From Escherichia coli phage KS_S14: 64,000 bases of DNA. This document shows, piece by piece, positions 220 through 39,491 of the stretch (positions are counted from its first letter, which is position 1; each line of letters opens with the position of its first letter). The translations under genes and the position numbers were made by a program. A model generated the notes under the pieces. It did not search any database and had not been told where the DNA came from. It saw only the letters and a program-made list of their open reading frames with translations. Where the stretch lies: sequence record LC788706.1. One strand, written 5' to 3'.

Positions 220-411
220 ATGAAACGATTAGTTAGATTTAAGTGTTGTGGTTCTGAGCATATTTTTACACATCTTCGTGAATTTAAAATGTGTGATTGT
301 GGTAAATCAGGCTATGACGCAGGGGACGGGTTCTATACACGTACTCTAGGGAACTTCAATGATTTAGAGTTTGAAGATCTCGAAAAACAAGATAAATCGA
401 CCGTTGGCTGA
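220..411 (+). CDS. small Cys-rich protein (possible zinc ribbon)
   Basis: 63 aa ORF with GGAG RBS upstream; CC..CDC motif; 3' end overlaps tRNA-Cys. Confidence 0.45.
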   Translation: MKRLVRFKCCGSEHIFTHLREFKMCDCGKSGYDAGDGFYTRTLGNFNDLEFEDLEKQDKSTVG

Positions 412-473
412 ATGGCTTAGGCGAAGGATTGCAAATCCTTTTTATGTGAGTTCAAATCTCATGCGGTCGTCCA
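398..473 (+). tRNA. tRNA-Cys (anticodon GCA)
   Basis: Hand fold: 7-bp acceptor cgaccgt/gcggtcg, anticodon stem aagga/tcctt with loop ttGCAaa, T-arm gtgag-ttcaaat-ctcat, encoded CCA. Confidence 0.65.
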
Positions 474-492
474 ATTTTTAAGGATATAAGTA

Positions 493-1011
493 GTGCACAA
501 AAAAGTCTTTGATAATTTACTAAAGAGAGGTTTTGTTACAATCGAACCCTTCTCTATAACCACAGAACTAATACAAAGATTTATGGAAGAGTATATAAAT
601 CTTACTGGTACTAGTGGGAATATTAAAAAGAACACAAATACTTTATACGCAAGAAAACTTGCAGCACTATCATTCATAAAGTTTAAGCAAGAAAATAAAC
701 TACCTATTTCTGAAGGTTTTGTATACTGTATTAGTAATCCTGCATGGAAAAATCAGTATAAAATAGGTATGAGTCAAAATCCAAAAGAGAGATTAGCTCA
801 ATATCAGACTTATTCCCCTTATAGGGATTATAAGTTAGAGCATTGGTCTTTTTGGTTTGACAAACGAAAAGGTGAAAAACTAATTCACCAGTATTTCAAA
901 GATTTAAAAGAACATGAGTGGTTTAGTATAAATTCTAGGGATCTTAGTAAATATCTAGAACGTATTAACTCTAGTTCTGACTTATATGGTTCCTTAGCTC
1001 TAATTGGTTAG
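493..1011 (+). CDS. T5orf172-family (GIY-YIG-like) protein, putative homing-endonuclease-like
   Basis: 172 aa; block EGFVY.I.NPAW...YKIGM...ERL..YQTYSPYRDYKL...EWF shared with paralog 2766..3239. Confidence 0.6.
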   Translation: MHKKVFDNLLKRGFVTIEPFSITTELIQRFMEEYINLTGTSGNIKKNTNTLYARKLAALSFIKFKQENKLPISEGFVYCISNPAWKNQYKIGMSQNPKERLAQYQTYSPYRDYKLEHWSFWFDKRKGEKLIHQYFKDLKEHEWFSINSRDLSKYLERINSSSDLYGSLALIG

Positions 1012-1065
1012 AGCGGCATCTTGTTAAGTTGAGGGTTGCTGGTTCGAATCCAGCAGGAACCGCCA
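988..1065 (+). tRNA. tRNA, probably Asn (anticodon GTT), anticodon stem imperfect
   Basis: Acceptor ggttcct/aggaacc, T-arm gctgg-ttcgaat-ccagc, CCA encoded; anticodon loop ttGTTaa with two stem mismatches. Confidence 0.5.
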
Positions 1066-1167
1066 AATTCTGTGTAGAGTTAAGTAAACCGGTAGCCAAC
1101 CAGCTATCATTGCTGACATCGAATTCAGCCACAGATACCATTTTCATTAATAACTGAGAAAACAAGC

Positions 1168-1353
1168 ATGTCCAAGAATGTAATTGCACAGTTAGAAGTT
1201 CATCGTGATAGCACTATCAACAATATTGAAGTTGAGAAGAAATACATCGAAGAACTTAAACATGATATACTAGTAAGTCTTAATCGTCTTAATGTACGAA
1301 AAGAGTTTCTTAAAGAACTTAATGCAGCTATTGAGAAACTCAAAGCTGAATAA
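1168..1353 (+). CDS. hypothetical small coiled-coil protein
   Basis: 61 aa ORF between two tRNA genes; weak RBS. Confidence 0.35.
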   Translation: MSKNVIAQLEVHRDSTINNIEVEKKYIEELKHDILVSLNRLNVRKEFLKELNAAIEKLKAE

Positions 1354-1362
1354 ACAGATCAT

Positions 1363-1439
1363 GCGACCGGGGCTGGCTTGGTAATGGTACTCCCCTGTCA
1401 CGGGAGAGAATGTGGGTTCGAATCCCATCGGTCGCGCCA
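1363..1439 (+). tRNA. tRNA-Asp (anticodon GTC)
   Basis: Acceptor gcgaccg/cggtcgc, anticodon stem ctccc/gggag with loop ctGTCac, T-arm gtggg-ttcgaat-cccat, CCA. Confidence 0.7.
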
Positions 1440-1465
1440 AACTAAACTAGCACGAGAAATATGCT

Positions 1466-1813
1466 ATGATTAATGCTAAAGAAGAATTGTTACTTGCCCT
1501 AAAGAATACTAATTCTGAAGTTAAGTGTATTAAGATAGAATTCGGTTATTATGGGGACAAAGAAGTTTGGGTATTACCCGTAGGTTATACAGAAAAAGAT
1601 ATTGAAGATTTTCTAAATAATCTAGACTTTAAATATGATTCTGGTTTCGGCGGACAATTGCTTTATGGTAACGTATGGTTTACTGATGGAACTTGGTTAG
1701 AACGTGGTGAATATGATGGTTCTGAATGGTGGGAGTACAAGACTACACCAGCAATCCCTGAAGAATGCCGAACAATTAATGGTGAAGTAGATAATACTTT
1801 ACGATTAAACTAA
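1466..1813 (+). CDS. hypothetical protein
   Basis: 115 aa ORF, protein-like composition, no recognised motif. Confidence 0.45.
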   Translation: MINAKEELLLALKNTNSEVKCIKIEFGYYGDKEVWVLPVGYTEKDIEDFLNNLDFKYDSGFGGQLLYGNVWFTDGTWLERGEYDGSEWWEYKTTPAIPEECRTINGEVDNTLRLN

Positions 1814-1935
1814 TAAAATTTCAGTGCAGAACACGGAGCTAGCAATTCGGAAGTGCTGACTCATGATAAGCTGCCTATGTACTTGCGAAGCGGTCGTGTC
1901 CAAGACTCGGACTCTTGCACTGAAAACAATCAAAC

Positions 1936-2055
1936 ATTCTAGCGTGGTTGATGGGGAAACCAGCTTGGCGAGGGCAGAAGCTCGTTCGATTCGAGTGAAA
2001 GAATGGTTCTCGTAAGTCCGCACAAGTGATAACAGGTTCGAGTCCTGTCTAGAAT
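1936..2055 (+). ncRNA. tRNA-like structured RNA candidate with two T-arm-like hairpins
   Basis: 7-bp terminal pairing attctag/ctagaat encloses hairpins ctcg-ttcgatt-cgag and acagg-ttcgagt-cctgt; no canonical cloverleaf; lies in a 370-nt ORF-free gap. Confidence 0.3.
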
Positions 2056-2205
2056 GACACTATAAAGTTTACTTATTATGTAGGTTCCGATAGATCGGCG
2101 GGTCTATTCTGGCATTTAAGAGAGGTCTCGCAAACTTCTTTGTCAGCCGTGGGGTTCATAGCCTCCAGGTGGCCTACACAATAAGTAAATTTATTAAAAA
2201 TTCAT

Positions 2206-2234
2206 TTGCTATTCTGCTTAATTATCCGTATAAT
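2206..2234 (+). promoter_or_regulatory. sigma70-type early promoter (TTGCTA-17-TATAAT)
   Basis: Consensus -35/-10 with 17-bp spacer and AT-rich upstream. Confidence 0.6.
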
Positions 2235-2266
2235 ATATTTTATAAAGTGAAGAGAAGGAAAGCAAA

Positions 2267-2425
2267 ATGAAACACAAGATAGCTCAAGTTTTTATGGCAT
2301 TATGGTGTATGCCAATAGCTATAACAGCATTTAATCTAGATACTTTTACTATAGAAGAAAAATGTATCGGATTAGTTAGCGGCTTTAGTATGCTGGGCTT
2401 ATCTTTGTTGTGGTTGAAGAAATAA
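2267..2425 (+). CDS. small membrane protein (52 aa)
   Basis: ATG 33 nt after promoter -10 with GAAGGA RBS; hydrophobic; below ORF-track cutoff. Confidence 0.35.
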   Translation: MKHKIAQVFMALWCMPIAITAFNLDTFTIEEKCIGLVSGFSMLGLSLLWLKK

Positions 2426-2429
2426 TATT

Positions 2430-2507
2430 CTCCGTGTAGCTCAGTTTGGCCAGAGCGTTTCGTTTGGGGCGATAGGGTCGGGGGTTCAAATCCTCCCACG
2501 GAGACCA
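2430..2507 (+). tRNA. tRNA-Pro (anticodon TGG)
   Basis: Acceptor ctccgtg/cacggag, anticodon loop ttTGGgg, T-arm ggggg-ttcaaat-cctcc, CCA. Confidence 0.55.
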
Positions 2508-2513
2508 AACAAT

Positions 2514-2591
2514 TGCGGGTTAGATCTCTGGTAGAGATCGCTAGTCTCATAAGCTAGAAAGAGGTAGGTTCGATTCCTGCACCCGCTTCCA
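2514..2591 (+). tRNA. tRNA with CAT anticodon (Met or Ile2)
   Basis: Anticodon stem ctagt/gctag with loop ctCATaa, T-arm gtagg-ttcgatt-cctgc, CCA; 1-72 mismatch. Confidence 0.5.
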
Positions 2592-2611
2592 TTTTAATAG
2601 AGGATTTCGAA

Positions 2612-2776
2612 ATGAAAGTATTTCGATTAGTAGTAAGTGACAAACGGTCAGGTAAGAATACATCAAAATCCTTACTTGCCCATTATGGTAAAAATTGGGA
2701 TGAAGTAATGGCAGAGTTTAATACTAATCACCCTTACTTGAAAGTTCACTCTATTAAGGAAGTTTATGCTTATTAA
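2612..2776 (+). CDS. small hypothetical protein (54 aa)
   Basis: ATG with GAGGA RBS; stop overlaps start of next gene. Confidence 0.35.
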   Translation: MKVFRLVVSDKRSGKNTSKSLLAHYGKNWDEVMAEFNTNHPYLKVHSIKEVYAY

Positions 2777-3239
2777 CAGGGTGCTTCAAGCTCTAGATCT
2801 TCCAGAGCTCTTTACTATTACCGACCCCTTAATACATCGGTATATGGAAAAGTATAATGAAATCTCTGGTAAAAAAGGGAAACTAAAATCCTCAGAATTT
2901 AAGTTCTGTTATAGAATGGCAGCATTAAACCTCTTAAAGTACAAGAGGGAGCATAAAATCCCTATAACAGAAGGATTTGTCTATGTAATAGGTAATCCAG
3001 CATGGCCTGGACTATATAAGATAGGTATGACAGTAGATGTGAATGAAAGACTGTCTAGTTATCAAACATATTCGCCTTATCGTGATTACAAGTTATACCA
3101 TTTCAGATTCTCCTCGGACAAGAGAAGAACTGAAAAAGCATTACATAACCTTCTGAAGGACTACAAAGTATCAGGAGAATGGTTTGAAGTACCTCTGTTA
3201 GACGCCTTCAAACTATTAGTAGAAAATTTGGATTGCTAA
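2766..3239 (+). CDS. T5orf172-family (GIY-YIG-like) protein, paralog of 493..1011
   Basis: 157 aa; shares N- and C-terminal blocks with 493..1011; 3' end overlaps tRNA-Lys. Confidence 0.6.
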   Translation: MLINRVLQALDLPELFTITDPLIHRYMEKYNEISGKKGKLKSSEFKFCYRMAALNLLKYKREHKIPITEGFVYVIGNPAWPGLYKIGMTVDVNERLSSYQTYSPYRDYKLYHFRFSSDKRRTEKALHNLLKDYKVSGEWFEVPLLDAFKLLVENLDC

Positions 3240-3307
3240 CTCAACTGGATAAGAGTACCGGACCTTTAATCCGTCAGTTCTGGGTTCGAATCCCAGGCAA
3301 TCCACCA
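3230..3307 (+). tRNA. tRNA-Lys (anticodon TTT), tentative
   Basis: Acceptor ggattgc/gcaatcc, T-arm ctggg-ttcgaat-cccag, CCA; anticodon loop ccTTTaa with C at position 33. Confidence 0.5.
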
Positions 3308-3325
3308 ATTTCAAGAAAAACTCAG

Positions 3326-3354
3326 TTGCTTGATGCTTAATTTCTTGTTATAAT
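3326..3354 (+). promoter_or_regulatory. sigma70-type early promoter (TTGCTT-17-TATAAT) driving a non-coding transcript
   Basis: Consensus hexamers followed by ATAAATTGATGAGGAGAG box. Confidence 0.6.
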
Positions 3355-3361
3355 ATTTATA

Positions 3362-3592
3362 TAAATTGATGAGGAGAGATCCTCATCATAGTTCACTAAG
3401 GTATTAGCTCGACCTAGGACTGGCTGCCAAAAAGCACGATCCCTACGATTCGGGAGAAGTTCTAGATTAGTCCACTAGATTCAGCGGCAACTGAATAGTG
3501 TATTGGGTTTGCGAGATGACGCAGTTCCTTCCGCTCGAAGCGAAGGTGCTGTAGTTACGCCGAGCTAATAGCCTTAGTAAACTAAAGAATTT
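3362..3592 (+). ncRNA. promoter-driven structured RNA candidate upstream of tRNA-Ala
   Basis: Starts with perfect 7-bp hairpin gatgagg/cctcatc after the promoter; no ORF with RBS; further hairpins; ends at tRNA-Ala. Confidence 0.35.
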
Positions 3593-3671
3593 GGGGAATG
3601 GGTCTGCATGGAGTGGACACCTCGCTTGCACCGAGGACATCAGAACGGTTCGATTCCGTTATTCTCCACCA
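3593..3671 (+). tRNA. tRNA-Ala (anticodon TGC)
   Basis: Acceptor ggggaat/attctcc, anticodon stem cctcg/cgagg with loop ctTGCac, T-arm aacgg-ttcgatt-ccgtt, CCA. Confidence 0.6.
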
Positions 3672-3676
3672 AATAC

Positions 3677-3753
3677 GCGTGATTGATGGAATTGGCATAC
3701 ATACCGTCCTTAGAAGTCGGGTTTTGAGGGTTCGAATCCCTTGTCACGCACCA
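3677..3753 (+). tRNA. tRNA with TAG anticodon (Leu-type) but short variable region, atypical
   Basis: Acceptor gcgtgat/gtcacgc, T-arm gaggg-ttcgaat-ccctt, CCA; anticodon loop ctTAGaa; irregular D region. Confidence 0.45.
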
Positions 3754-3878
3754 AATTTGATGGTCAGAGTAAATTAAACCTACTATCTCGGTTGAGCTGT
3801 TTTAATGGGTTCGAATCCCAGCGAGGCGTAACTGCCTGGTGTGATAGAGGCATCATTCCACTAACATTGGAAAAACTA

Positions 3879-4109
3879 ATGAAACGAAAATTAAAAAAGT
3901 CTTATATAATTAAGATAAATAAGCTACGAAGTAGGGCAAAAGGATGGCCACTTCGAATATTAATTGCGGATAACCATACTAGATACCATGCGGAACAACG
4001 TCATTACAAACAGTGGGAGTCATACTGCCGCTCAAAAGCAGGTCGTTTAGATGGATCTTATGAGTTTCTATTTGGTAAGAAGCCTACTAGAGTAGCTTTA
4101 GGTAATTAG
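3879..4109 (+). CDS. small basic protein (76 aa)
   Basis: In-frame ATG inside ORF-track entry 3741..4109, whose upstream part is tRNA-like sequence; Lys/Arg-rich. Confidence 0.35.
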   Translation: MKRKLKKSYIIKINKLRSRAKGWPLRILIADNHTRYHAEQRHYKQWESYCRSKAGRLDGSYEFLFGKKPTRVALGN

Positions 4110-4114
4110 TACTT

Positions 4115-4205
4115 GGAAGAGCAAATCGAATTGGCGACGAAAACCGCTTGGAAAGTGGCTGACTGGTAAAACGGCTTGAGAGTTCAAATCTCTCCTCTTC
4201 CGCCA
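4115..4205 (+). tRNA. tRNA-Ser (anticodon GGA), class II
   Basis: Acceptor ggaagag/ctcttcc, anticodon loop ttGGAaa, long variable arm, T-arm gagag-ttcaaat-ctctc, CCA. Confidence 0.55.
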
Positions 4206-4217
4206 AACAATTTATAT

Positions 4218-4312
4218 GGTAGGTCAATCCAACGGCTGGCGCTGGACTCCGACTTGAAATCGGTTGATCGTAGTGATACGGTGTAAGGGTTCGATCCCCT
4301 TACCTACCTCCA
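4218..4312 (+). tRNA. tRNA-Ser (anticodon TGA), class II
   Basis: Acceptor ggtaggt/acctacc, anticodon loop ctTGAaa, long variable arm, T-arm aaggg-ttcgatc-ccctt, CCA. Confidence 0.55.
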
Positions 4313-4315
4313 AAT

Positions 4316-4451
4316 CTTGGAATATGCCGGAATTGGTAGACGGGACTGCCGAATAGGTTTACTAGGAACATCCACTCCTAGAAATATACCTTAAAAGCGG
4401 TTGAGTTAAATGGTCTAACTCATGAAGGTTCAAGCCCTTCTATTCCTTGAT
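4316..4451 (+). ncRNA. unresolved tRNA-like element (possibly class II tRNA with insertion)
   Basis: Leu-like D-loop gaattggtagac, hairpins ctagg/cctag and gagtta/taactc, perfect T-arm gaagg-ttcaagc-ccttc, no CCA; cloverleaf not resolved by hand. Confidence 0.3.
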
Positions 4452-4562
4452 ACATCAATGGCTCAAAGTGTAACGGTGCTATTTGATGCTCTTGGAAAGA
4501 CTTTCCCGACATGCGTTCGGGGGTAAGCTTCTGAGGCTAGAATAGAAGAGTTTCTGAGAGCC

Positions 4563-4682
4563 GCCACAATTGAAAATTCGTACTCGTCTTGAGCTGCGTG
4601 CAATAGGAGATAACTTGATTAGTATTCTAGAACATGCTAATTGAGGATGGTTTCGCTAACCCTGCGAGTTTTCAATTGTGGC
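4563..4682 (+). ncRNA. long-range stem structure (14-bp perfect inverted repeat) abutting tRNA-His
   Basis: gccacaattgaaaa at 4563-4576 pairs with ttttcaattgtggc at 4669-4682, enclosing about 90 nt; 3' arm overlaps tRNA-His 5' end. Confidence 0.3.
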
Positions 4683-4754
4683 TATATCATAATTGGTTAA
4701 TGATCCTGATTGTGAATCAGGCCTATGTGGATTCGAATTCCACTAGCCACCCCC
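4678..4754 (+). tRNA. tRNA-His (anticodon GTG)
   Basis: Acceptor gtggcta/tagccac, anticodon stem cctga/tcagg with loop ttGTGaa, T-arm gtgga-ttcgaat-tccac. Confidence 0.65.
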
Positions 4755-4780
4755 AAATTAACTTAAATAGGAAATAAAAT

Positions 4781-4981
4781 ATGGCTGATTTCTGCAAACA
4801 ATGCTCCATTGATATGTGGGGTAGAGATACTGGCGACTTATCTGGTCTGATTACAGAAGCCGAAGTCAAAGAAGGTTATGGTGCAGTTGTGGTTTGCGAA
4901 GGATGCGGAGTCATTCGAGTAGATCATGAAGGTAAGCGCCTTGAAGAACCTGAGCCAACCGCAATGGTTCCTGTAGAGTGA
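4781..4981 (+). CDS. small CxxC protein (zinc-ribbon-like)
   Basis: 66 aa; CKQC and CEGCG motifs; RBS present. Confidence 0.45.
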   Translation: MADFCKQCSIDMWGRDTGDLSGLITEAEVKEGYGAVVVCEGCGVIRVDHEGKRLEEPEPTAMVPVE

Positions 4982-4982
4982 A

Positions 4983-5564
4983 ATGAAATTAGAGAATTTT
5001 AAAGTAATCCCAGAATATCCAGAATACTTAATCTCTCCATATGGAGAGGTTTACTCTACTAAGAGTAATAAACTACTTACACATCATTTAGGCAGTGCAG
5101 GATACCCGTTTGTAACGTTCTATGAACAGGGTAAGAATGTTTCTGTTGTATTGCATAGATTATTGGCTAGAGTATTTAAAGATTTACCTTCGCTAGAATC
5201 TGAACTAGAGGTGGATCACAAAGATAGGAATAAATTGAACTTTACCCTAGATAATCTAGTTGTCATGACCAAGGAAGATCACAGAGTAAAAACTACACTT
5301 GAAAGAGGGCATACAGTAGGTGGTAGTAAATGTCCTTATTGTAATAAACAAATAAATTCTTCATCTAAAACTTGTTTTGATTGTAAACCTAAGAGTAGCC
5401 CTGATATTACAGCAGAGCAAATAGAATATTGGGTAATAAACTATTCATGGGTTAAAGCATCAAAAGAGCTGGGACTATCTGATAATGGTCTACGTAAACG
5501 TTATAAATCCTTAACAGGTAAAGATCCAAAAAGTATTAAGAAGAAGGTTAGCCAAGTCGGTTAA
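4983..5564 (+). CDS. HNH homing endonuclease
   Basis: 193 aa; EVDHKDRNKLNFTLDNL HNH motif and C-terminal CxxC..CxxC; 3' end overlaps tRNA-Gln. Confidence 0.65.
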   Translation: MKLENFKVIPEYPEYLISPYGEVYSTKSNKLLTHHLGSAGYPFVTFYEQGKNVSVVLHRLLARVFKDLPSLESELEVDHKDRNKLNFTLDNLVVMTKEDHRVKTTLERGHTVGGSKCPYCNKQINSSSKTCFDCKPKSSPDITAEQIEYWVINYSWVKASKELGLSDNGLRKRYKSLTGKDPKSIKKKVSQVG

Positions 5565-5617
5565 GGCTGGGGTCTCTGAAATCCTGATCAGTGGTTCGAA
5601 TCCACTACCTTCTGCCA
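5542..5617 (+). tRNA. tRNA-Gln (anticodon CTG)
   Basis: Acceptor agaaggt/accttct, anticodon loop ctCTGaa, T-arm agtgg-ttcgaat-ccact, CCA. Confidence 0.55.
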
Positions 5618-5623
5618 AACAAT

Positions 5624-5701
5624 TGGGGATTAGCTTAGCTTGGCCTAAAGCTTCGGCCTTTGAAGTCGAGATCATTGGTTCAAATCCAATATCCCCTGCC
5701 A
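5624..5701 (+). tRNA. tRNA-Gln (anticodon TTG)
   Basis: Anticodon stem tcggc/gtcga with loop ctTTGaa, T-arm attgg-ttcaaat-ccaat, CCA; 1-72 mismatch. Confidence 0.55.
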
Positions 5702-5708
5702 AATAATC

Positions 5709-5784
5709 GCGGTTAAGCACACGGGTTGTGCCGCAGGCCTTCCAAGCCTCGCTGAGTAGGGTTCGATTCCCTCTAGCCGCTCCA
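5709..5784 (+). tRNA. tRNA-Gly (anticodon TCC)
   Basis: Acceptor gcggtta/tagccgc, D-stem gcac/gtgc, anticodon loop ctTCCaa, CCA. Confidence 0.6.
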
Positions 5785-5800
5785 ACTTTAAGGAAACACT

Positions 5801-6022
5801 ATGCACGTTTTTGAGTTTCGTAATAAGAGTACTGATAAGCGAGTTATCATTATTGGAGAAACATATCGAGCATATGAACAAACTGACGGCTCTGTTATCT
5901 TGAATGATGAGAAAGGAGGTTTTAGCTTTTATCCAGAAGAAACGTATGAAGAATTTCGTACTAAGTTTCTTTTACCAGACTGGCTAGCAGTAGCCGAGCA
6001 ACGAGAATCCGAAGATGGCTGA
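5801..6022 (+). CDS. hypothetical protein
   Basis: 73 aa ORF with AAGGAAA RBS. Confidence 0.5.
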   Translation: MHVFEFRNKSTDKRVIIIGETYRAYEQTDGSVILNDEKGGFSFYPEETYEEFRTKFLLPDWLAVAEQRESEDG

Positions 6023-6179
6023 TAACCTAAAATTAAAGGTTGACAAACAAAAGAAATACGTTGAGATTGAATTAGGCGAAGAACGCTTAAAGCTAACTTT
6101 CGAGTTTCTTCAGCAGTTGGCAATGACAGTAATGTCAGATAAATCCCCTGTATTTGAAAAAGAAATTCCGTTGAAATAA
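6015..6179 (+). CDS. small hypothetical protein (54 aa)
   Basis: ATG overlaps stop of upstream gene; below ORF-track cutoff. Confidence 0.35.
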   Translation: MADNLKLKVDKQKKYVEIELGEERLKLTFEFLQQLAMTVMSDKSPVFEKEIPLK

Positions 6180-6189
6180 CGGGTTTATT

Positions 6190-6264
6190 GCTCCTAAAGC
6201 ATTGCTGGTGATGCAGTTGCCTTGTAAGCATCTGAACCGGGTTCGATTCCTGGTGGGAGCACCA
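6190..6264 (+). tRNA. tRNA-Thr (anticodon TGT)
   Basis: Acceptor gctccta/tgggagc, D-stem gcat/atgc, anticodon loop ctTGTaa, T-arm ccggg-ttcgatt-cctgg, CCA. Confidence 0.6.
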
Positions 6265-6279
6265 AATTTAAAAATTCAT

Positions 6280-6308
6280 TTGCTTTCTCTCTTATTTATT
6301 GCTATAAT
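6280..6308 (+). promoter_or_regulatory. sigma70-type early promoter (TTGCTT-17-TATAAT)
   Basis: Consensus hexamers; downstream ATAAATTAATGAGAGG box then RBS and ATG at 6339. Confidence 0.6.
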
Positions 6309-6338
6309 ATTTATATAAATTAATGAGAGGGAAACCAA

Positions 6339-6629
6339 ATGAAACGTTATCTTTCTGTAGTATTCCAAACTGGTGGCCAAAGGTACACCTATGAATTTCC
6401 ATCTTCTTGGAAAATCAAAGAGGGTGATCAAGTAGTAGTGCTAACACCGCGTGAAGGATATAAAGTAGTAACGGTTAAACAAGTATTTCCAAAAGATCAT
6501 GAACCAGCTAAAGGCATCCGCTATAAGATGATTCATGGTGTGGTTCGTCAAGTACCACGAACTGAGGTAGAAGTAGATAAGGCTGGAGAAACTAAATTCC
6601 ATTATACTTCTTACTTAGACAGTGTGTGA
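6339..6629 (+). CDS. hypothetical protein
   Basis: 96 aa ORF immediately after consensus promoter. Confidence 0.5.
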   Translation: MKRYLSVVFQTGGQRYTYEFPSSWKIKEGDQVVVLTPREGYKVVTVKQVFPKDHEPAKGIRYKMIHGVVRQVPRTEVEVDKAGETKFHYTSYLDSV

Positions 6630-6644
6630 TGTAAATATTTTAAT

Positions 6645-6721
6645 GCTTCGGTAGCTTAGCGATCTAAAGCACTCGGCTGATAACCGAGAGATCGGGGGTT
6701 TAAATCCCTCCCGGAGTACCA
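6645..6721 (+). tRNA. tRNA-Ile (anticodon GAT)
   Basis: Acceptor gcttcgg/ccggagt, anticodon stem ctcgg/ccgag with loop ctGATaa, T-arm ggggg-tttaaat-ccctc, CCA. Confidence 0.65.
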
Positions 6722-6818
6722 AATTTAGGAATTAAGACTATGCGTCCAGGAAAGTTTAAAAAAAGCTAATTGGTCTAAAGAGTATAAAGAATACTTACTT
6801 AGTCTAGTAAAACATAAC

Positions 6819-6894
6819 AGTTAGTTGGCAGAGTGGTTATGCACCTCCTTCATACGGAGCGACTACAGTGGTTCAAATCCACTACTAACTACCA
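6819..6894 (+). tRNA. tRNA with CAT anticodon (Met or Ile2)
   Basis: Acceptor agttagt/actaact, anticodon stem ctcc/ggag with loop ttCATac, T-arm agtgg-ttcaaat-ccact, CCA. Confidence 0.55.
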
Positions 6895-6931
6895 TTAAAA
6901 TAGCTAGAGATAGCTAAATTTAGGAGCAGCT

Positions 6932-7126
6932 ATGTTAACAATTAAAATAATGTCAGCCAAGAATGGTGAACATATCCATACGGGCAAAAGCGTAAGCTTT
7001 AATCCTAGAAATAAGAGATTGGCTATAGTTGGAGTAGATCAAGCCATCTTTTTAAAAGAAGATGAAGTAGCATACGTCATGAACCAAACTGGTAAGACAG
7101 TTTCCGTATACTATGGAAAAGTATAA
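6932..7126 (+). CDS. hypothetical protein
   Basis: 64 aa ORF with AGGAG RBS. Confidence 0.45.
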   Translation: MLTIKIMSAKNGEHIHTGKSVSFNPRNKRLAIVGVDQAIFLKEDEVAYVMNQTGKTVSVYYGKV

Positions 7127-7168
7127 AGAATAAAGAGCTGAGCCAAATTCTAACATCGGGGAGATCTA

Positions 7169-7537
7169 ATGAAAGCATATCAAAATCTTAAATCTGGCGT
7201 AATTAACCTTGTTCATGAAAATCAGATTATTCAGCTATATTCCGACAACGGTGAACTTAAACAGAAAGTTCTAGTTGAAGATCTAGAAGGTATCACACCA
7301 CAATTCGATCCTGAAGCCTTCCGTGAAGTTAAGGTGGAAGTCGCCCCTCAAATCGAAGGTGGTCAGCACCTAAATGTCAATGTGTTAAGCCGTGATCAGC
7401 TTTTGGATGCGCAGAAACATCCTGAAAAATACCCTCAATTAACTATCCGTGTTTCAGGGTACGCTGTGCGTTTTAACGCACTGACGCGTGAACAGCAGAA
7501 CGACGTTATTAGTCGTACATTTACTCAGGCGATGTAA
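7169..7537 (+). CDS. grcA: autonomous glycyl-radical cofactor (GrcA/YfiD-like) protein
   Basis: 122 aa; C-terminus [10 protein letters not shown]...[23 protein letters not shown] matches the glycyl-radical signature RVSGYAV of GrcA. Confidence 0.7.
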
Positions 7538-7618
7538 TGGGGCTTGGATACGGTTTCTACGAACTACGTAAGGTAGTCGAGCAAACTCCATTTATCTCCC
7601 AAGTTTTAGGAGAAATGT

Positions 7619-7933
7619 GTGGATCGAGCATTAAGACGTCATCACCGGCAACGTGTAAAGAACAACCGCAAGAAGTATTGGACAGTCTTCCCACATGAAG
7701 AAAGCCCTAAACGGTTAGGTATTATCACTACTACTCCTTGTATCTGTTCTTGTTGGATGTGCGGGAATCCTCGCAAATACTTTAAGAATAGTAAAGCAGG
7801 GATGAAAACCTCGGAGATTAGGAAAATGGAAGCAATGATTACGGATATTTCAAATGATGAATTTGATGGCTTTGTAGGATTCGGAGAAGGAATTAGCTCA
7901 GGCTGTTTCGAAGATGTACGCCCCGATTTGTAA
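7619..7933 (+). CDS. hypothetical Cys-rich protein
   Basis: 104 aa ORF, probable GTG start; followed by terminator. Confidence 0.4.
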   Translation: MDRALRRHHRQRVKNNRKKYWTVFPHEESPKRLGIITTTPCICSCWMCGNPRKYFKNSKAGMKTSEIRKMEAMITDISNDEFDGFVGFGEGISSGCFEDVRPDL

Positions 7934-7944
7934 TTAATAACAAA

Positions 7945-31339: not shown

Positions 31340-33010
31340 ATGATTATTTCCGCAGAAAAACAAACCGTTATCCTGAAAATGGCCGCTGACTTTAATTTCT
31401 ATGGTAAACGTCTGCGCGCTACTAAACTGGAAGTCTGCGACGATATATCAAAAGCGGTCTACGATACTACTAAACACTCCACCGCTATCTGCGACTGGCT
31501 GGAAGCAAATAAACCAGCTAAACCGAAAGCTGCAAAAGTAGCAAAAGCCATTAAAAACGATGAGCGCCCAGAAGCGGCGGGAATTGTTTCTAGTACGGTT
31601 GAGCAATGGGAAGTAAAACAGGGTAAACGCTTTATTATTACGTCGATTCAGAATAATACTTTCCCGCATAAAAACTTTTTGTCCTCGCTTGAACAATACG
31701 CTAAATATATCGGCGCTGATTTGCTTGTTTCTAAGTATATTTATAATAAAAACGGCTTCCAGAATGGAGAAGGTGCAGACGGTATCAAATACGATCCCGC
31801 ATTTGATAAATATATTTGCAGCAAAAACGTGTTTTTAAATAACCGCCGCTTTGCTTTCATGGCTGAAATTAATGTTTTGCCCACCGCAGATTATCCGCTT
31901 TCAGGATTCGCAGAAACTGCAACGGCTTTAAATATTGAAGGGCTGGCAATTGGTCATGCTAAAATTACCGCCGAAAGCGTGCCAGCTCTCAAAGGTGAGG
32001 TAGTGCGCCGCATGTATTCAACCGGAACGGCGACGTTAAAAAACTATATCCAGCAAAAAGCAGGGCAAAAAGCCGAGGCGCTGCATAACTTCGGCGCGCT
32101 GATTGTTGAGTTCGACGAGGACGGGGAATTTTTTGTTCGCCAGCTTGAAACAATGGATGAAAGCGGGGTGTTTTATGATCTGAACGTTTGCGCTACTCCT
32201 GCCGGATGTTATGAAACATCGGGACATGTTTTAGGCTTGCAATATGGCGACATCCACGCAGAAAAATTAGATGAGGAGTGCGCCGCCGCATCTTGGGGGC
32301 ATGGTGACACCTACGGGCTTGTGGATATTCTTAAACCAAAATATCAATTCGTCCATGACGTGCATGATTTTACATCACGCAACCATCACAACCGCGCATC
32401 CGGTGTATTCCTAGCAAAACAATACGCCGCCGGACGTGATAAGGTATTAGATGATCTTATCGATACGGGGCGCGTATTGGAATCAATGGAGCGCGATTTT
32501 TCTCAAACGATCATCGTAGAATCAAACCATGATTTAGCTTTATCCCGTTGGCTGGATGATCGTAACGCCAACATTAAAGACGACCCTGCAAACGCGGAAC
32601 TATATCACCGCCTGAATGCCGCTATTTACGCCGCAATCGGTGAGCATGATGAAACGTTTAACGTGCTTGATTATGCGCTGCGCAAAGTTGCAGGTTGTGA
32701 GTTTAACGCCATTTTCCTAACGACTGACCAGTCTTTCAAGATTGCAGGCATTGAATGCGGCGTACACGGTCACAATGGCATTAACGGCAGCCGTGGCAAT
32801 CCTAAACAATTTAAGAAATTGGGCAAGTTAAACACGGGGCATACGCATACCGCCAGCATTTACGGCGGTGTATATACCGCTGGCGTGACTGGTAGTCTGG
32901 ACATGGGTTACAACGTTGGCGCGTCTAGCTGGACTCAAACGCATATTATTACCTATGCAAACGGTCAACGCACTTTGATTGACTTTAAGAATGGTAAATT
33001 CTTTGCGTAA
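31340..33010 (+). CDS. A1: A1-like pre-early protein, calcineurin-like metallophosphoesterase (putative nuclease)
   Basis: 556 aa, the size recalled for T5 A1; motifs GDIHAEK, HDVHD, ESNHD, GHNGINGSRGN, GHTHT. Confidence 0.6.
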   Translation: MIISAEKQTVILKMAADFNFYGKRLRATKLEVCDDISKAVYDTTKHSTAICDWLEANKPAKPKAAKVAKAIKNDERPEAAGIVSSTVEQWEVKQGKRFIITSIQNNTFPHKNFLSSLEQYAKYIGADLLVSKYIYNKNGFQNGEGADGIKYDPAFDKYICSKNVFLNNRRFAFMAEINVLPTADYPLSGFAETATALNIEGLAIGHAKITAESVPALKGEVVRRMYSTGTATLKNYIQQKAGQKAEALHNFGALIVEFDEDGEFFVRQLETMDESGVFYDLNVCATPAGCYETSGHVLGLQYGDIHAEKLDEECAAASWGHGDTYGLVDILKPKYQFVHDVHDFTSRNHHNRASGVFLAKQYAAGRDKVLDDLIDTGRVLESMERDFSQTIIVESNHDLALSRWLDDRNANIKDDPANAELYHRLNAAIYAAIGEHDETFNVLDYALRKVAGCEFNAIFLTTDQSFKIAGIECGVHGHNGINGSRGNPKQFKKLGKLNTGHTHTASIYGGVYTAGVTGSLDMGYNVGASSWTQTHIITYANGQRTLIDFKNGKFFA

Positions 33011-33024
33011 TTAAATTATTCCCC

Positions 33025-33048
33025 TAGCGGCTTGAAATATAGCCGCTA
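33025..33048 (+). promoter_or_regulatory. intercistronic palindrome tagcggct/agccgcta
   Basis: 8-bp arms, 8-nt loop tgaaatat. Confidence 0.4.
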
Positions 33049-33064
33049 TTACAGGAGTCAAAAA

Positions 33065-33322
33065 ATGAAAGTTATTCTACCCAAAACACTAGACGAAAAA
33101 GCATTTATTTCCCCCGATGAAATGGAATCAAATAAAGTTTACAGCTTCGGGCCTATCCTAGCCGTCAAAACTGATACGGATGGCATTATTTCCATTGATT
33201 ATCGTGATAATGATGTTGTTCCTTTTGATGACGATAGCGCTTTTTATGAGTGGTTAAGCGATAATAATTTACCCGTAAATGGTGAATTAACGCCGTATCA
33301 AATGCAGATTATTATCAAATAA
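33065..33322 (+). CDS. hypothetical protein
   Basis: Start at second ATG with AGGAG RBS. Confidence 0.4.
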   Translation: MKVILPKTLDEKAFISPDEMESNKVYSFGPILAVKTDTDGIISIDYRDNDVVPFDDDSAFYEWLSDNNLPVNGELTPYQMQIIIK

Positions 33323-33360
33323 TTTAAATCCTTTATTAAACTAACTGGAGTTTTATAAAT

Positions 33361-33753
33361 ATGAAAAAGCAAAATATTCCATTCGATCGCGCTCAGTCTT
33401 CTATTGTTCTGGTTTATTCTAATGGTGAACGTTACCACGTCGAGGCGGGGCACGTTATTGATGATCTATTAGATTTCAATGACGCTTTACAGGTTACTAC
33501 CTTTGCCTATACGCAAGGCCGCGCAAGTAGTTACATTAAGGCCGCAGGCGTTTATGTTGATACGGTGAAACAAGAAACGATTATCATCGACGCCGTAAAA
33601 TCCGGTCTAGCCTTTGCGGTTGTCGCGCCTTGCCCCGCTTGCCTTGATGATCAATTGATTTCTGCAAAAGTATATACTTGTGCTGGGATTCGTTCCCATG
33701 TATCAGGTGAGGATGTTAGTTTTATTGCCGATGCGTTGGCTTATGGTCTTTAA
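33361..33753 (+). CDS. hypothetical protein
   Basis: 130 aa ORF with GGAG RBS. Confidence 0.45.
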   Translation: MKKQNIPFDRAQSSIVLVYSNGERYHVEAGHVIDDLLDFNDALQVTTFAYTQGRASSYIKAAGVYVDTVKQETIIIDAVKSGLAFAVVAPCPACLDDQLISAKVYTCAGIRSHVSGEDVSFIADALAYGL

Positions 33754-33766
33754 TAGTTGATTTATT

Positions 33767-33793
33767 ATTGCCCGCTGATAAATAGCGGGCAAT
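33767..33793 (+). promoter_or_regulatory. intercistronic palindrome attgcccgct/agcgggcaat
   Basis: 10-bp arms, 7-nt loop. Confidence 0.4.
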
Positions 33794-33832
33794 GCTGGAT
33801 AAACTAAATCCCTTTAATGGAGAACGTAACAA

Positions 33833-34567
33833 ATGAATAAAGCTATTATGAATATTTCCCGCAGCTTCCCGCATATTTCCCGCGTCATGATTTGGGATTT
33901 AGACGGCACTATCATTAATTCTTTCCACCGCGTAGCGCCTTGCTTTGATAGCGAGGGCAATTTAGATTTAAATAAGTATAAAAATGAAGCGTGTAAACAT
34001 CATTTAATAATGCAGGATACATTATTACCATTAGTTGAATACATGCGCCAGTGCATGAACGACGCAAATACTTTAAACATTATTTGTACCGCTCGACTAA
34101 TGAGCAAGTCGGACTATTATTATTTGCGTAAACAAGGGTTGCGCGGTCGTGGGGATAGTAATATCCGCGTTTTTTCCCGTGATACACTACACAAATATTT
34201 TGAGGCTGATAAAGTTAGCGAGATATACCACAGTAAGGACGCAGTTTATAAATCTTATTATTTTGAATTATTTAAACAGTTATATCCGAACGCTGATTTT
34301 ACAATGATTGATGATCATAAAGGTGTATTATCAGCGGCGGCATCATACGGATTTAAAACGCTGGACGCGCAAGCCGTTAACGATATTCTATCAATCGGCG
34401 TGGCATTAATAGGTGAAACCTTTATTGATGAATCCCTCGATGATGATAATGATTATCAATTCCTAGCCGACCGTTTAAAATTATGTTGGGAAGGTATGAC
34501 CGAGGAAGAACGCGCAGAATATAGTTGCAGCCCGCAACAATATATTGAGAAATTAAAAGTTGCGTAA
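33833..34567 (+). CDS. dmp: HAD-superfamily 5'-deoxyribonucleotidase (Dmp-like)
   Basis: 244 aa; N-terminal IWDLDGTI (DxDGT HAD motif); size recalled for T5 Dmp. Confidence 0.55.
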   Translation: MNKAIMNISRSFPHISRVMIWDLDGTIINSFHRVAPCFDSEGNLDLNKYKNEACKHHLIMQDTLLPLVEYMRQCMNDANTLNIICTARLMSKSDYYYLRKQGLRGRGDSNIRVFSRDTLHKYFEADKVSEIYHSKDAVYKSYYFELFKQLYPNADFTMIDDHKGVLSAAASYGFKTLDAQAVNDILSIGVALIGETFIDESLDDDNDYQFLADRLKLCWEGMTEEERAEYSCSPQQYIEKLKVA

Positions 34568-34584
34568 TAATTAAAGTTGAAACT

Positions 34585-34621
34585 GTTTCATCCTGTAATT
34601 AAAATGGTTGCAGGATGAAAC
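34585..34621 (+). promoter_or_regulatory. palindrome gtttcatcctg/caggatgaaac after last operon gene
   Basis: 11-bp arms; possible bidirectional terminator between convergent units. Confidence 0.4.
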
Positions 34622-34731
34622 AATTACCCTGCTAATAGTAACGGGAGTGGCGGTTAGCAGACTAAGTATTCTCCCCCAACCCACTGGGCACACCTCCATG
34701 TGTAATCTTATGAAATTTGGCAAAAGTCAAA

Positions 34732-34977
34732 TTAGCGCATAGAAGGGTCATCAAACCTGTATTCTGGTCTGAACTCACGGAATCTCTTCCGCGACGCCCG
34801 AGATCCATCCGACCACTCCCGCTCAAACTCCGCACGTTTCTCGTCAAACTTCCGCTCCCTTTCCGCAATCTCCCTCGTCACTCCCGCAATATATTTACGA
34901 TGCTTATTGATTGCCGCAGTCGTCCCGAAAACTCCCGCGAGTATCCCGATAATAAAAGCAATTATAATACTAAACAT
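34732..34977 (-). CDS. small membrane protein with charged C-terminal tail
   Basis: 81 aa; N-terminal TM helix; last gene of overlapping minus-strand cluster. Confidence 0.4.
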   Translation of the reverse strand: MFSIIIAFIIGILAGVFGTTAAINKHRKYIAGVTREIAERERKFDEKRAEFEREWSDGSRASRKRFREFRPEYRFDDPSMR

Positions 34978-35164
34978 CTAATTCCCTCTCAATTTGCAGA
35001 ATACGAGTGCTATCACAACGTTGCAGTAGTACTAGCTTTTCTAGAATAACTTGTTGTTGTTTCACTTGGGCTTCTAGAGTTTTTAGGCGGAGATACACGA
35101 CACGAGAGACAATAAGGATTACCCAGACTAATATTACTATTAGTGTAACTGCCACTTCCATCAT
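34970..35164 (-). CDS. small membrane protein with coiled-coil tail
   Basis: 64 aa; start overlaps upstream stop. Confidence 0.35.
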   Translation of the reverse strand: MMEVAVTLIVILVWVILIVSRVVYLRLKTLEAQVKQQQVILEKLVLLQRCDSTRILQIERELDV

Positions 35165-35267
35165 TTACGTTTCTCCGACAGTAGGGTTTCAATTCTAGCT
35201 AAGTGATTATCTAAAATACATTGACCAATAATCACAACCCCCAGTAGTGCAATAATTACCCATTCCA
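35160..35267 (-). CDS. very small membrane protein (35 aa)
   Basis: ATG overlapping stop of upstream ORF; hydrophobic; hand-found. Confidence 0.25.
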
Positions 35268-35395
35268 TTATATCCACCCCGCCATAGCTGCTAACCAAAA
35301 ACCTACGAAAATAAAGAATAGGATAGTTCCGAACCCAAAACTATTTATCCAACTCTCATACACCTCTCCGCGTCTATTCTTTCTTTTGTTTGACA
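35267..35395 (-). CDS. small membrane protein (42 aa)
   Basis: ATG with AGGAG RBS; basic N-terminus then hydrophobic helix; hand-found. Confidence 0.3.
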
Positions 35396-35572
35396 TATCT
35401 TTCATGCTCCTATAAGTGTGGTATTTGAAATATTCTATAACTTGTGCACAACCAACCGTGCCTATGAACTCCTAGAAGGACTTCTACTTTTCTTATATAG
35501 TGTTTTCTGCCAGTATACCGTCCAAGAAATAAAAAATTTAGTTTACTTGGATGTCTTTTTGTTTTATACTAA

Positions 35573-35839
35573 TTACAGGTAATTAGATTGCTCTAGTTTA
35601 AATTTACAATCACCGTATTTAAGGTCAAACTGACTGAGATCCCACCACCCAAACTTAGTACGGAGCTGTACTACTGGAAAGCGATCTCCCTTAATACGAA
35701 CTTTTTGAACCTTGAGGCCGTAATGTTCCTCTCCCGCACCACCAAAAGATTTTACAAATCCCATACAAAATGGTTTGGGGGCAGGTGCACAACCAGATAA
35801 CATAACTGTGGCAACTAGTGCAATCACAAACTTTTTCAT
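35573..35839 (-). CDS. lipoprotein, Llp-like (possible receptor-blocking lytic-conversion protein)
   Basis: 88 aa; signal peptide with lipobox LSGC; divergent from receptor-binding-protein candidate. Confidence 0.45.
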   Translation of the reverse strand: MKKFVIALVATVMLSGCAPAPKPFCMGFVKSFGGAGEEHYGLKVQKVRIKGDRFPVVQLRTKFGWWDLSQFDLKYGDCKFKLEQSNYL

Positions 35840-35924
35840 ATTTATCTCTCCATTTCTAATTTATGAATCTATTATAGCAAAATAGAGAGATGAAAGCAAA
35901 TACATTTTTATAATAGGAGATTAT

Positions 35925-37682
35925 ATGGGTTTTTTCGCTGGAAAGTATAGCGATGGTAAGACCGTACTATCTTTAAATACTGAATCTGGTGGTGACATTA
36001 ATCGTCACTATAGTCCAAGTAATAATAGTATTTTTCATAGTGATATGCCATTTGTTCTAGTTGATGGTACTTATGAGGCAGGATTAGGTGATGCCGGGAA
36101 TGGGTTTTTCGTATGTCAGATGCCTCCTGATATAGTAAATATTAAATCTAATGATCCTGGTAGAGTTATACTAACTGCTATTGAGATTAATGGTACTCAC
36201 AGAGCTTTTCTTAATGGTACTCAGAGTAAAGTTGGTCAAACTATAGTTGCCACTCAAGCAGACCCCTTTAGATCTTTTGCTAGTGTTTCTCAAACCAGTG
36301 GATTTGCATTTGGTAATAGTCTAGCATCTGGAACTTATAATTATAACCCATCGATAGGGCACGAAGAATCTATTTCTAGGAGTGGTACAGGTGGTACTAC
36401 GTTACATAGTACCTACCATGGGATAGTTAGGCCTGGTGCGGGAGCTCCTGTAGGTGTTACTGTTGCAGAAGCCTTTGCACAGTTAGGTTTTCCTACTAAT
36501 AGTAGCACAGTACCTGTAGATGGGAATAACCCGTATTATTGGGATCCTGGATGGATGTCGCCTCTAGGAGCAGCACATAGAGGGCATGATTGGTTTTATG
36601 TTTGCAACTCTAATATACGTGGATACGGTGGGGTTAGACAAGGGCTCCCAGGTAATGTAAATACTATGTACCACGACGGTGGGAACAGATTTGTTTGTAG
36701 GGGATCTACTACTAATTTAGCTAACCAGTCGGGTGACTCTACAATACTACAGGATTGGTATAATATAACCCCTACTAAGGTTATTTGGTATGTTCTTAAT
36801 TTAAGGTACTCTAATGGTGGAATGAGTATTTCAGGCAACCCCTTTACTGGTTCTGATATTCTTATATCTCCTTCTAATTTCATAATTAAAGGGGTAAGTC
36901 TCCCTAATACCGGGTATAAATTTATAAATCAGAATGCTTTTGGTAACCTAGGTTACCGTCCTGATATGGAGTATATAGGAAATAACGCAGCGTATACCGG
37001 GGTTTTTGGGGATACCACGGCAAGGTGTGAACTTGTAGGGTCTAGTAATGGAGGATTATGGTCTCCTGTAGACTATGGTGGAGCTAAATCCCAAATTAGC
37101 ATTTACAAATTCGGAGCTGGTAAGCAATGGTATGTAAACTCTAGGGATAATACTATCGGTAATGAACACGGGGTTGTTTGGGGACCATCAGCAGTTCCAT
37201 TACGACTTTTTGGTGGAAATGTAGGTAGCTCTTACATGGGGGATGATATTACTCCCAGCTACCCGGGAACAGGGGATAGATACGTTGGTTTATCAACTAT
37301 TGGGCTAGGTATACCGGGTGGCAATGCTACAGTAATTCTTACCACTGAAGTTATATCAGGTAACCTTAACTGTGCAGGTGTTCCTGCTAATACATGGAAT
37401 AACGGTGTGTTTCAAGTGCAAGGAAGAAGAGCATATAGCTATAGTAATGGAGATGCAATATTCCACCAGATTTTAACATTACCAGTAGGGTATTTAGTAC
37501 CTTTTCATACTACATCTGCTTTTAGATACACACCTAACAATGCCCTAAGTAGAAATAGTTTTATATACACTGCTAAAAATCTGGGGAATGGAAATGTAGA
37601 GTTAGGGGTAGTTATGCACGTAAGTTTAGGTAGTGCAGTTTTCCTACCGAGATTAAGAGTAACAGTTCAACGCCTTACCTAA
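35925..37682 (+). CDS. receptor-binding tail protein candidate (pb5/Oad-like)
   Basis: 585 aa; Gly/Asn/Ser-rich; adjacent to lipoprotein and terminal-repeat-like region; N-terminus MGFFAGK resembles recalled pb5 start. Confidence 0.45.
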
Positions 37683-37692
37683 AGGAGGAAAT

Positions 37693-38175
37693 ATGGCAAA
37701 TGATGTATTAGTACCAGATCTTATGTCCCCTGAAGGGATGGATGTAATTGAAGCATATTTACAGTGTGGCAGCGATGTGCCTTCTGCCGCACGTAGTCTT
37801 GGGATGTCCGAAATTGCTTTTCGAGATATTATGAATCGTAGTGAAGTTAAGAACTACTTAAATGATATTTTTATGGAGAGTGGTTTCCGTAACAGAGATC
37901 GTTTATTTGGTGTTCTGGATGAAGTTATCAAGCGTAAACTAGAGGAACTAGAAGAAACTGGCATGGGTTCTGACCAAGATATTATGGATATTCTCTGGAA
38001 AGCACATAAAATGAAAATGGAAGAAATGAAAATGATGGTAGAACTGGAGAAAGTGAAGGCAGCAGCCCGTACTCCAGCTAACCAGACCAACATCCAGAAT
38101 AATATTATTGCTGGAGCTGGGGATCAAAACTACATGGACTTAATTACTTCCCTAGCTACTGGAGGTAAGAAGTAA
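37693..38175 (+). CDS. terminase small subunit candidate
   Basis: 160 aa directly upstream of large terminase; HTH-like N-terminus. Confidence 0.5.
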
Positions 38176-39491
38176 TGGAAGTATCAAGACCTTACGTTAA
38201 TACAGTAGATGTTATTGATTTCGGAATAGATAAACGTTTCTTTCGTCTACCTGTTTCGGGAATACTAGCACAAGAAGGTATTACACCTAATGGTCCTCAA
38301 ATAGCGATTATTAATGCTCTAGAGGATCCTAGACATCGTTTTGTAACGGCGTGTGTATCACGCCGTGTAGGTAAATCCTTCATCGCATATACTCTTGGGT
38401 TCCTAAAATTGCTGGAACCTAATGTGAAGGTGTTAGTAGTTGCTCCTAACTATTCACTGGCCAACATCGGATGGTCTCAGATTCGTGGTCTTATTAAAAA
38501 ATATGGCCTACAAACTGAACGTGAGAACGCTAAAGATAAGGAAATTGAGTTAGCTAATGGTTCTCTGTTTAAACTAGCTTCCGCTGCTCAGGCTGACTCC
38601 GCAGTTGGACGTTCATATGATTTTATCATCTTTGACGAGGCGGCAATTTCCGATGTGGGTGGTGATGCCTTCAGGGTTCAGCTGCGTCCTACTCTAGATA
38701 AACCTAATTCTAAGGCTCTATTTATTTCCACACCTCGTGGAGGTAACTGGTTTAAAGAGTTTTACGCCTACGGATTTGATGATACGTTGCCTAACTGGGT
38801 ATCTATTCATGGTACATATCGTGATAACCCTCGTGCTGACCTGAATGATATAGAAGAAGCACGTCGTACGGTTAGTAAAAACTACTTCCGCCAGGAATAT
38901 GAAGCTGACTTCTCTGTATTTGAAGGTCAGATTTTTGATACTTTCAATGCTATTGACCATGTTAAAGACCTTAAGGGTATGCGTCATTTCTTTAAAGATG
39001 ATGAAGCATTCGAAACGTTGCTTGGTATCGACGTTGGTTATCGTGATCCTACAGCAGTTCTTACTATTAAGTATCATTACGATACGGATACTTACTATGT
39101 ATTAGAAGAGTATCAGCAGGCGGAGAAAACTACAGCTCAGCATGCTGCTTACATTCAGCACTGTATAGATCGTTATAAAGTTGATCGTATTTTTGTTGAC
39201 TCCGCGGCAGCTCAGTTCCGTCAAGACTTAGCTTATGAGCATGAAATTGCATCAGCTCCAGCTAAAAAATCTGTCCTAGATGGCCTAGCATGCCTGCAAG
39301 CACTGTTCCAACAGGGTAAGATTATTGTAGATGCCTCATGCTCCTCCTTAATTCATGCACTGCAGAACTATAAGTGGGACTTCCAAGAAGGTGAAGAGAA
39401 ATTATCACGTGAAAAACCACGTCATGATGCTAATTCTCACCTTTGTGATGCGCTGCGCTATGGAATTTACTCTATTTCCCGTGGTAAATAA
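38175..39491 (+). CDS. terminase large subunit
   Basis: 438 aa; Walker A-like RRVGKS, Walker B-like DFIIFDEAA, C-terminal nuclease-like region. Confidence 0.75.
   Translation: MEVSRPYVNTVDVIDFGIDKRFFRLPVSGILAQEGITPNGPQIAIINALEDPRHRFVTACVSRRVGKSFIAYTLGFLKLLEPNVKVLVVAPNYSLANIGWSQIRGLIKKYGLQTERENAKDKEIELANGSLFKLASAAQADSAVGRSYDFIIFDEAAISDVGGDAFRVQLRPTLDKPNSKALFISTPRGGNWFKEFYAYGFDDTLPNWVSIHGTYRDNPRADLNDIEEARRTVSKNYFRQEYEADFSVFEGQIFDTFNAIDHVKDLKGMRHFFKDDEAFETLLGIDVGYRDPTAVLTIKYHYDTDTYYVLEEYQQAEKTTAQHAAYIQHCIDRYKVDRIFVDSAAAQFRQDLAYEHEIASAPAKKSVLDGLACLQALFQQGKIIVDASCSSLIHALQNYKWDFQEGEEKLSREKPRHDANSHLCDALRYGIYSISRGK

Follow-up and report, generated by a model that had tools for sequence, protein, structure and literature searches.

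Escherichia coli phage KS_S14 carries, at positions 7169..7537 (+) of the 64,000-nucleotide stretch of DNA analysed here (record LC788706.1; hereafter the window), a gene whose product is most likely a spare part of the GrcA type, which would restore oxygen-damaged host pyruvate formate-lyase (PFL, encoded by pflB) and keep fermentation going during infection. By analogy with homologues of known activity, we place the probability of this reading at about 0.8. As a phage auxiliary metabolic gene it would then be a neat case, in which a part of 14 kDa keeps the central fermentative enzyme of a facultative anaerobe running after damage by oxygen, and does so when the host genome no longer yields new protein. 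The gene itself is already known. Its T5 counterpart, T5.056, is annotated as GrcA, and the idea that phages encode spare parts for glycyl-radical enzymes goes back to 2001, when it was established for T4 Y06I. Given that annotation and the identical proteins present in GenBank, nothing new has been learned in this respect.

The gene and its locus

The open reading frame (ORF), an ortholog of T5.056, runs on the plus strand from an ATG to a TAA stop, which is included in the coordinates, and encodes 122 amino acids (~14 kDa), exactly as the sequence-only reading had listed it. A Shine-Dalgarno-like GGGGAG (7158..7163, +) lies 5 nt 5' of the start codon. Two parts can be distinguished in the product: a divergent, phage-specific N-terminal half (aa 1-60; 7169..7348, +) and a C-terminal glycyl-radical domain (aa 61-122; 7349..7534, +), which duplicates residues 698-759 of PflB. 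The G+C content is 44% in the 3' half of the gene and 38% in the 5' half.

The gene belongs to the early part of a T5-like genome, which is rich in tRNA genes, and directly follows a tRNA-Ile/tRNA-Met pair, as it does in phage DT57C. A scan of positions 6600-8600 returned 8 promoter-like sites, no excess over shuffled sequences (6.0±2.1), and 0 terminators. The tRNA region as a whole (398..6894) comprises 14 tRNA genes interspersed with small ORFs, and the tRNA-Val, tRNA-Ser and tRNA-Gly genes of the T5-like relative DaisyDussoix are absent from the corresponding places of the window (ARAGORN). Within this region, an ORF for an HNH/NUMOD4 homing endonuclease (4983..5564, +) overlaps the start of tRNA-Gln (5542..5617). 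A 64-aa ORF (6932..7126, +; PHROG 3909) is found between tRNA-Met and the GrcA-like gene. In DT57C, tRNA-Met ends 13 nt before grcA with no ORF in between, and DaisyDussoix has an unannotated gap of 275 nt at this place.

On the 3' side, a 53-aa ORF (7537..7698, +; PHROG 31464) begins with a start codon that overlaps the stop codon of the GrcA-like gene (ATGTAATG), an arrangement suggestive of translational coupling. The same small ORF overlaps, in another frame, a T5.055-like ORF of 104 aa (7619..7933, +; GTG start; PHROG 4499), and both are annotated in DT57C. The 104-aa ORF is conserved beside grcA in T5-like phages, and the cysteines of its product are clustered in CICSCWMC, where they show the CX3CX2C spacing typical of radical-SAM enzymes. 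This product has no match in Pfam or the PDB, scores 14.7 bits (cutoff 380) against a radical-SAM maturase model, and was rejected as a candidate activase on account of its length, which is far below that of such enzymes. A small Cys/Zn protein is the probable identity.

A glycyl-radical domain of the PFL type

The C-terminal part of the protein is recognised by the Pfam model Gly_radical (PF01228) over residues 62-103 (E=3.7e-18), where the score of 66.4 bits lies well above the gathering cutoff of 22.2. The fingerprint RVxG[FWY] is present as RVSGYAV at residues 94-100 (7448..7468, +). A phmmer search of PDB sequences retrieved E. coli GrcA, also known as YfiD (6owr, E=1.4e-30), and E. coli PFL (1h16 and 1cm5, E of ~5e-27), while other glycyl-radical enzymes, among them choline TMA-lyase, glycerol dehydratase and benzylsuccinate synthase, reached E values of 1e-12 or worse. 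In the match to PFL, residues 61-122 align with PflB 698-759 without a gap. Residue n of the phage protein is thus equivalent to PflB residue n+637, which makes Gly97 (codon 7457-7459, +) the counterpart of the radical glycine at PflB Gly734 and GrcA Gly102. The sequence-only reading had placed the GrcA/YfiD signature in the C-terminal 70 residues. The RVSGYAV motif around the radical glycine was correctly identified, but the domain is confined to the last ~62 residues (61-122).

A multiple alignment (A1; MAFFT) combined the window protein and its DT57C ortholog with T4 Y06I and two E. coli sequences, GrcA and the C-terminal 127 residues of PflB. This alignment includes the comparison with E. 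coli GrcA that had been proposed as a check on the initial assignment, and it bears the assignment out: the radical-glycine motif is present and G97 falls in an invariant column, as do all columns of the fingerprint. Residues 63-119 are almost invariant across the alignment, including G97 and a block of 19 residues, and the strand of 11 residues that matches PFL beta10 and YfiD y-beta1 is invariant. The C-terminal 61 residues of the window protein are ~80% identical to each of the three reference sequences (48/61 to GrcA, 49/61 to PflB and 49/61 to Y06I). Among 5426 E. coli genomes, the best DNA match of the domain is pflB, which was found in all of them with 75.8% identity over 186 nt. A single-sequence AlphaFold2 model of the protein is uninformative, with a pLDDT of 34, and the fold is instead predicted from the ~80% identity to the solved PFL and GrcA structures.

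A full-length comparison places the protein in a phage GrcA-like family. All of its 122 residues match positions 1-121 of the 121-position profile of PHROG 1209 (E=8e-48), the family to which T4 vs.6/Y06I also belongs according to the label in record OZ209057. The top NCBIfam match is the GrcA equivalog TIGR04365 (E=3.5e-35), although the score of 121 bits remains under the equivalog cutoff of 170 because only residues 50-122 align. For calibration, E. coli GrcA scores 234 bits with this model and T4 Y06I 153 bits. Since Y06I, a validated spare part, also falls under the cutoff, this threshold sets bacterial GrcA apart from its phage relatives and is no boundary of spare-part function. The architecture is that of a spare part, namely a small stand-alone protein of ~14 kDa with a C-terminal PFL-type domain, including the beta10-equivalent strand, and without the catalytic barrel. 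The identification of a GrcA-like spare part in the initial reading is therefore upheld by the ~80% C-terminal identity to GrcA and PflB and by membership in the same PHROG as T4 Y06I, which has been validated in vitro.

Phage context, distribution and selection

Megablast searches with positions 6300-8500 and 1-25000 retrieved, at 94-98% identity, hundreds of T5-like phages of the genera Tequintavirus and Epseptimavirus (Demerecviridae, Markadamsvirinae) that infect Escherichia and Salmonella, with Baret, DaisyDussoix, vB_Eco_mar004NP2 and PMBT29 as the top matches. On these matches, the window belongs to a T5-like phage (Demerecviridae). Its gene content comprises the 14 tRNA genes within the first 7 kb, lysis genes and a dNMP kinase further on, a pre-early gene for the A1 DNA-transfer protein, and late genes that encode the receptor-binding protein, terminase, portal, major head protein, tail tube and tape measure. 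Late genes (receptor-binding protein at 35925..37682 and terminase at 38175..39491) begin no more than ~3 kb after the gene of the A1 protein (31340..33010; window ~31340..39500), so that the sequence either spans the genome end, its long terminal repeat having been collapsed, or represents a permuted assembly.

Proteins 100% identical to the window protein occur in the Salmonella phages Th1 and S131, where they are annotated as "pyruvate formate-lyase". Other records label the orthologs "2-ketobutyrate formate-lyase", "formate acetyltransferase", "acetyltransferase-like" or "glycyl radical cofactor". With tblastn, a homolog was found in 1584 of 50,697 phage records. The T5-like clade accounts for 429 of these records, at identities of at least 90%, and about 1000 others, at ~52-56% identity, are T4-like Straboviridae, T4 included. 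The T4-like carriers infect Escherichia, Klebsiella, Shigella, Yersinia, Citrobacter, Enterobacter, Cronobacter and Aeromonas. Enterobacterales and Aeromonas make up most of the hosts listed for the homolog-bearing phages, which makes a gut-adapted trait plausible.

Selection was estimated by the Nei-Gojobori method on six T5-like orthologs (window, DT57C, DaisyDussoix, fuchur, LVR16A and poul149; alignment A2), and dN/dS is given only for pairs with dS above 0.2. The ratio is 0.02-0.16 for the whole gene, with dS of up to 0.8; the radical domain (residues 61-122) gives 0-0.13 and the N-terminal half (residues 1-60) 0.08-0.22. Purifying selection thus acts on both halves, as expected of a working gene and not of a decaying host fragment. 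These values bear directly on whether the gene might be a moron remnant, a recently captured and functionless piece of host pflB or grcA. The DNA identity of the 3' half to host pflB and its G+C content, higher than that of the 5' half, would fit such an origin. The ORF is nevertheless intact and has a ribosome-binding site, its locus is kept in hundreds of T5-like genomes, full-length homologs exist in T4-like phages, and substitutions have accumulated with very few amino acid changes. Locus conservation and the low dN/dS effectively refute the idea of a functionless fragment, which we regard as barely credible.

The N-terminal half

Upstream of the radical domain, similarity to known spare parts drops sharply. 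In alignment A1 the N-terminal half is 26-33% identical to GrcA and Y06I (15/57 and 17/52 residues, respectively), and pairwise BLASTP detected no significant similarity of residues 1-50 to either GrcA or T4 Y06I. The sole pairwise BLASTP match to GrcA in this half is a short REVxVEVxP motif (aa 51-60), just before the domain. GrcA and Y06I are themselves only ~29% identical over their N-terminal halves.

Residues 1-60 of E. coli YfiD and residues 696-733 of PFL are both required if YfiD is to be activated and to form its complex with cleaved PFL, whereas catalysis proceeds without them (Andorfer et al. 2021; PMC8683613). By analogy, the N-terminal half of the phage protein would aid docking to damaged PFL and activation. 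A half that is under purifying selection yet mostly unrelated to GrcA is also compatible with a phage-specific interaction. The protein might, for instance, serve as a modulator or decoy that binds host PflA, or intact or inactive PflB or TdcE, and thereby throttles or redirects pyruvate/formate metabolism or activase capacity independently of oxygen. GrcA reportedly acts in vivo on inactive, full-length, uncleaved PflB as well (Kammel & Sawers 2022; PMC12338860), so that cleavage need not be required. A pure decoy, however, would have no need of the functional blocks of a radical domain, yet G97, the beta-strand and the loop RVSGYAV are all intact and hardly vary, and the T4 homolog restores catalysis in vitro. 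On balance, we consider a modulator or decoy unlikely.

A related proposal holds that the T5-type protein is no simple copy of the host part and that its conserved, mostly GrcA-unrelated N-terminal half confers phage-specific behaviour. Such behaviour could consist of radicalisation without prior cleavage of PFL, of a bias towards TdcE or a different formate-lyase paralog of the host, or of cooperation with the product of the adjacent, conserved 104-aa CX3CX2C ORF. It would mean that a T5-like phage actively re-tunes host pyruvate/formate metabolism, beyond mere repair. We treat this proposal as a long shot.

Proposed function

The preferred reading remains that of a spare part for host PflB. 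Its experimental foundation lies in two validated cases, E. coli YfiD and T4 Y06I (PMC8683613). According to Wagner et al. 2001 (BBRC 285:456; summary in PMC8683613), both proteins receive their radical from the PFL-activating enzyme and associate with PFL that oxygen has cleaved, which thereby regains activity. Efficient activation of YfiD occurs only in the presence of cleaved PFL (Andorfer et al. 2021; PMC8683613). With all elements of the radical domain in place and membership in PHROG 1209, the family that includes one of these two proteins, the window protein most likely has the same function. The initial reading had named host pyruvate formate-lyase as a target, and the ~80% domain identity and the PHROG 1209 kinship support this choice at the level of sequence.

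The following sequence of events can be proposed. Traces of oxygen would cleave active host PflB at its radical glycine, Gly734. The damaged enzyme would then be bound by the 14-kDa phage protein, on whose Gly97 the host radical-SAM activase PflA would place a glycyl radical. The phage C-terminal domain would finally fill the vacated site and restore the conversion of pyruvate to acetyl-CoA and formate. TdcE may be an additional host target. No other glycyl-radical motif lies inside an ORF of the window and no ORF of the window has the size of a radical-SAM activase, a CX3CX2C search having returned only the far-too-short 104-aa ORF. The partner enzyme and the activase would thus come from outside the window, most simply from the host.

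Infection by T5 entails early shut-off and degradation of the host genome. An infected cell could consequently not replace PflB (85 kDa) or host GrcA by new synthesis, and a part made by the phage could sustain fermentative energy and acetyl-CoA in niches that are microaerobic or in which oxygen fluctuates. We infer both this fitness benefit and the timing of expression from sequence, as we do activation by host PflA and binding to PflB, possibly also to TdcE. The literature searched on T5 and glycyl radicals or phage GrcA contained no experiments on the T5-type protein, no phenotype of phage grcA/vs.6 mutants and no in vivo benefit of any phage GrcA.

The class III ribonucleotide reductase NrdD is also cleaved by oxygen at its radical glycine. 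The sequence-only reading named a glycyl-radical ribonucleotide reductase as a second target; the protein would then be a spare part for phage or host NrdD and would guard the dNTP supply after oxygen cleavage. T5-like relatives do encode an NrdD, ~25 kb away and outside the window (DaisyDussoix bas31_0060), and the LVR16A record labels the ortholog of the window protein "ribonucleotide reductase subunit". The C-terminus of the T5-like NrdD, however, consists of a Cys4 zinc ribbon (CPICGNHD) followed by RRVCGYLGNPG, and is a different glycyl-radical domain. BLASTP of the window protein against this NrdD gave a chance alignment (E=5.9) in which the radical motifs are not paired, so that the protein does not belong with NrdD tails; its domain is instead ~80% identical to PflB 698-759. 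A 2026 review, moreover, names formate lyases as the only class of glycyl radical enzymes with identified spare parts. With an NrdD tail that is unrelated in sequence, this target was rejected, and we judge it very improbable. In DaisyDussoix, NrdD carries the motif RVCGYLG, and the annotation of the ~60 kb inspected lists no NrdG activase; the phage NrdD and the GrcA-like protein may both depend on host activases.

Comparison with known systems

The closest counterparts of the gene are T5.056 and its orthologs in other Demerecviridae, which have the same length of 122 aa and occupy the same locus, with the tRNA-Ile/tRNA-Met pair before and T5.055 after. The DT57C protein (YP_009149830.1, "putative autonomous glycyl radical cofactor GrcA") is encoded between T5.058 and T5.055 and is 94% identical to the window protein. 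Apart from the 64-aa ORF that the window has between tRNA-Met and grcA, and that DT57C lacks, nothing of substance differs between the two phages at this locus.

Compared with PflB itself, the window protein shares 49 of the 61 residues noted above within 698-759, and its tail, TFTQAM, resembles TFTQSM of the enzyme. It lacks the 690-residue catalytic barrel with Cys418/Cys419 and cannot be a stand-alone enzyme. The overall plan is that of E. coli GrcA (YfiD, 6owr), in which a stand-alone radical domain of ~60 residues follows an N-terminal region of ~60 residues. Unlike GrcA, the window protein is encoded by a phage and does not come under the acid-, MazF- and stress-linked control described for host grcA.

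T4 Y06I (vs.6) resembles the window protein in its PHROG, its size (120 vs 122 aa), its identical RVSGYAV loop and the common MKAYQ start. Full-length identity between the two is 52.7% by tblastn and 58% in the MAFFT alignment A1. They differ in the affinities of their radical domains: the C-terminal 61 residues of Y06I match E. coli GrcA at 60 of 61 positions, whereas the T5-type domain is about as far from GrcA as from PflB and Y06I (48-49/61 in each case) and, at the DNA level, matches pflB best among E. coli genes. The domain thus has had different histories in the two phage lineages, and the sequence comparison points to a recent event in T4-like phages, in which the radical domain was replaced from the host or underwent gene conversion.
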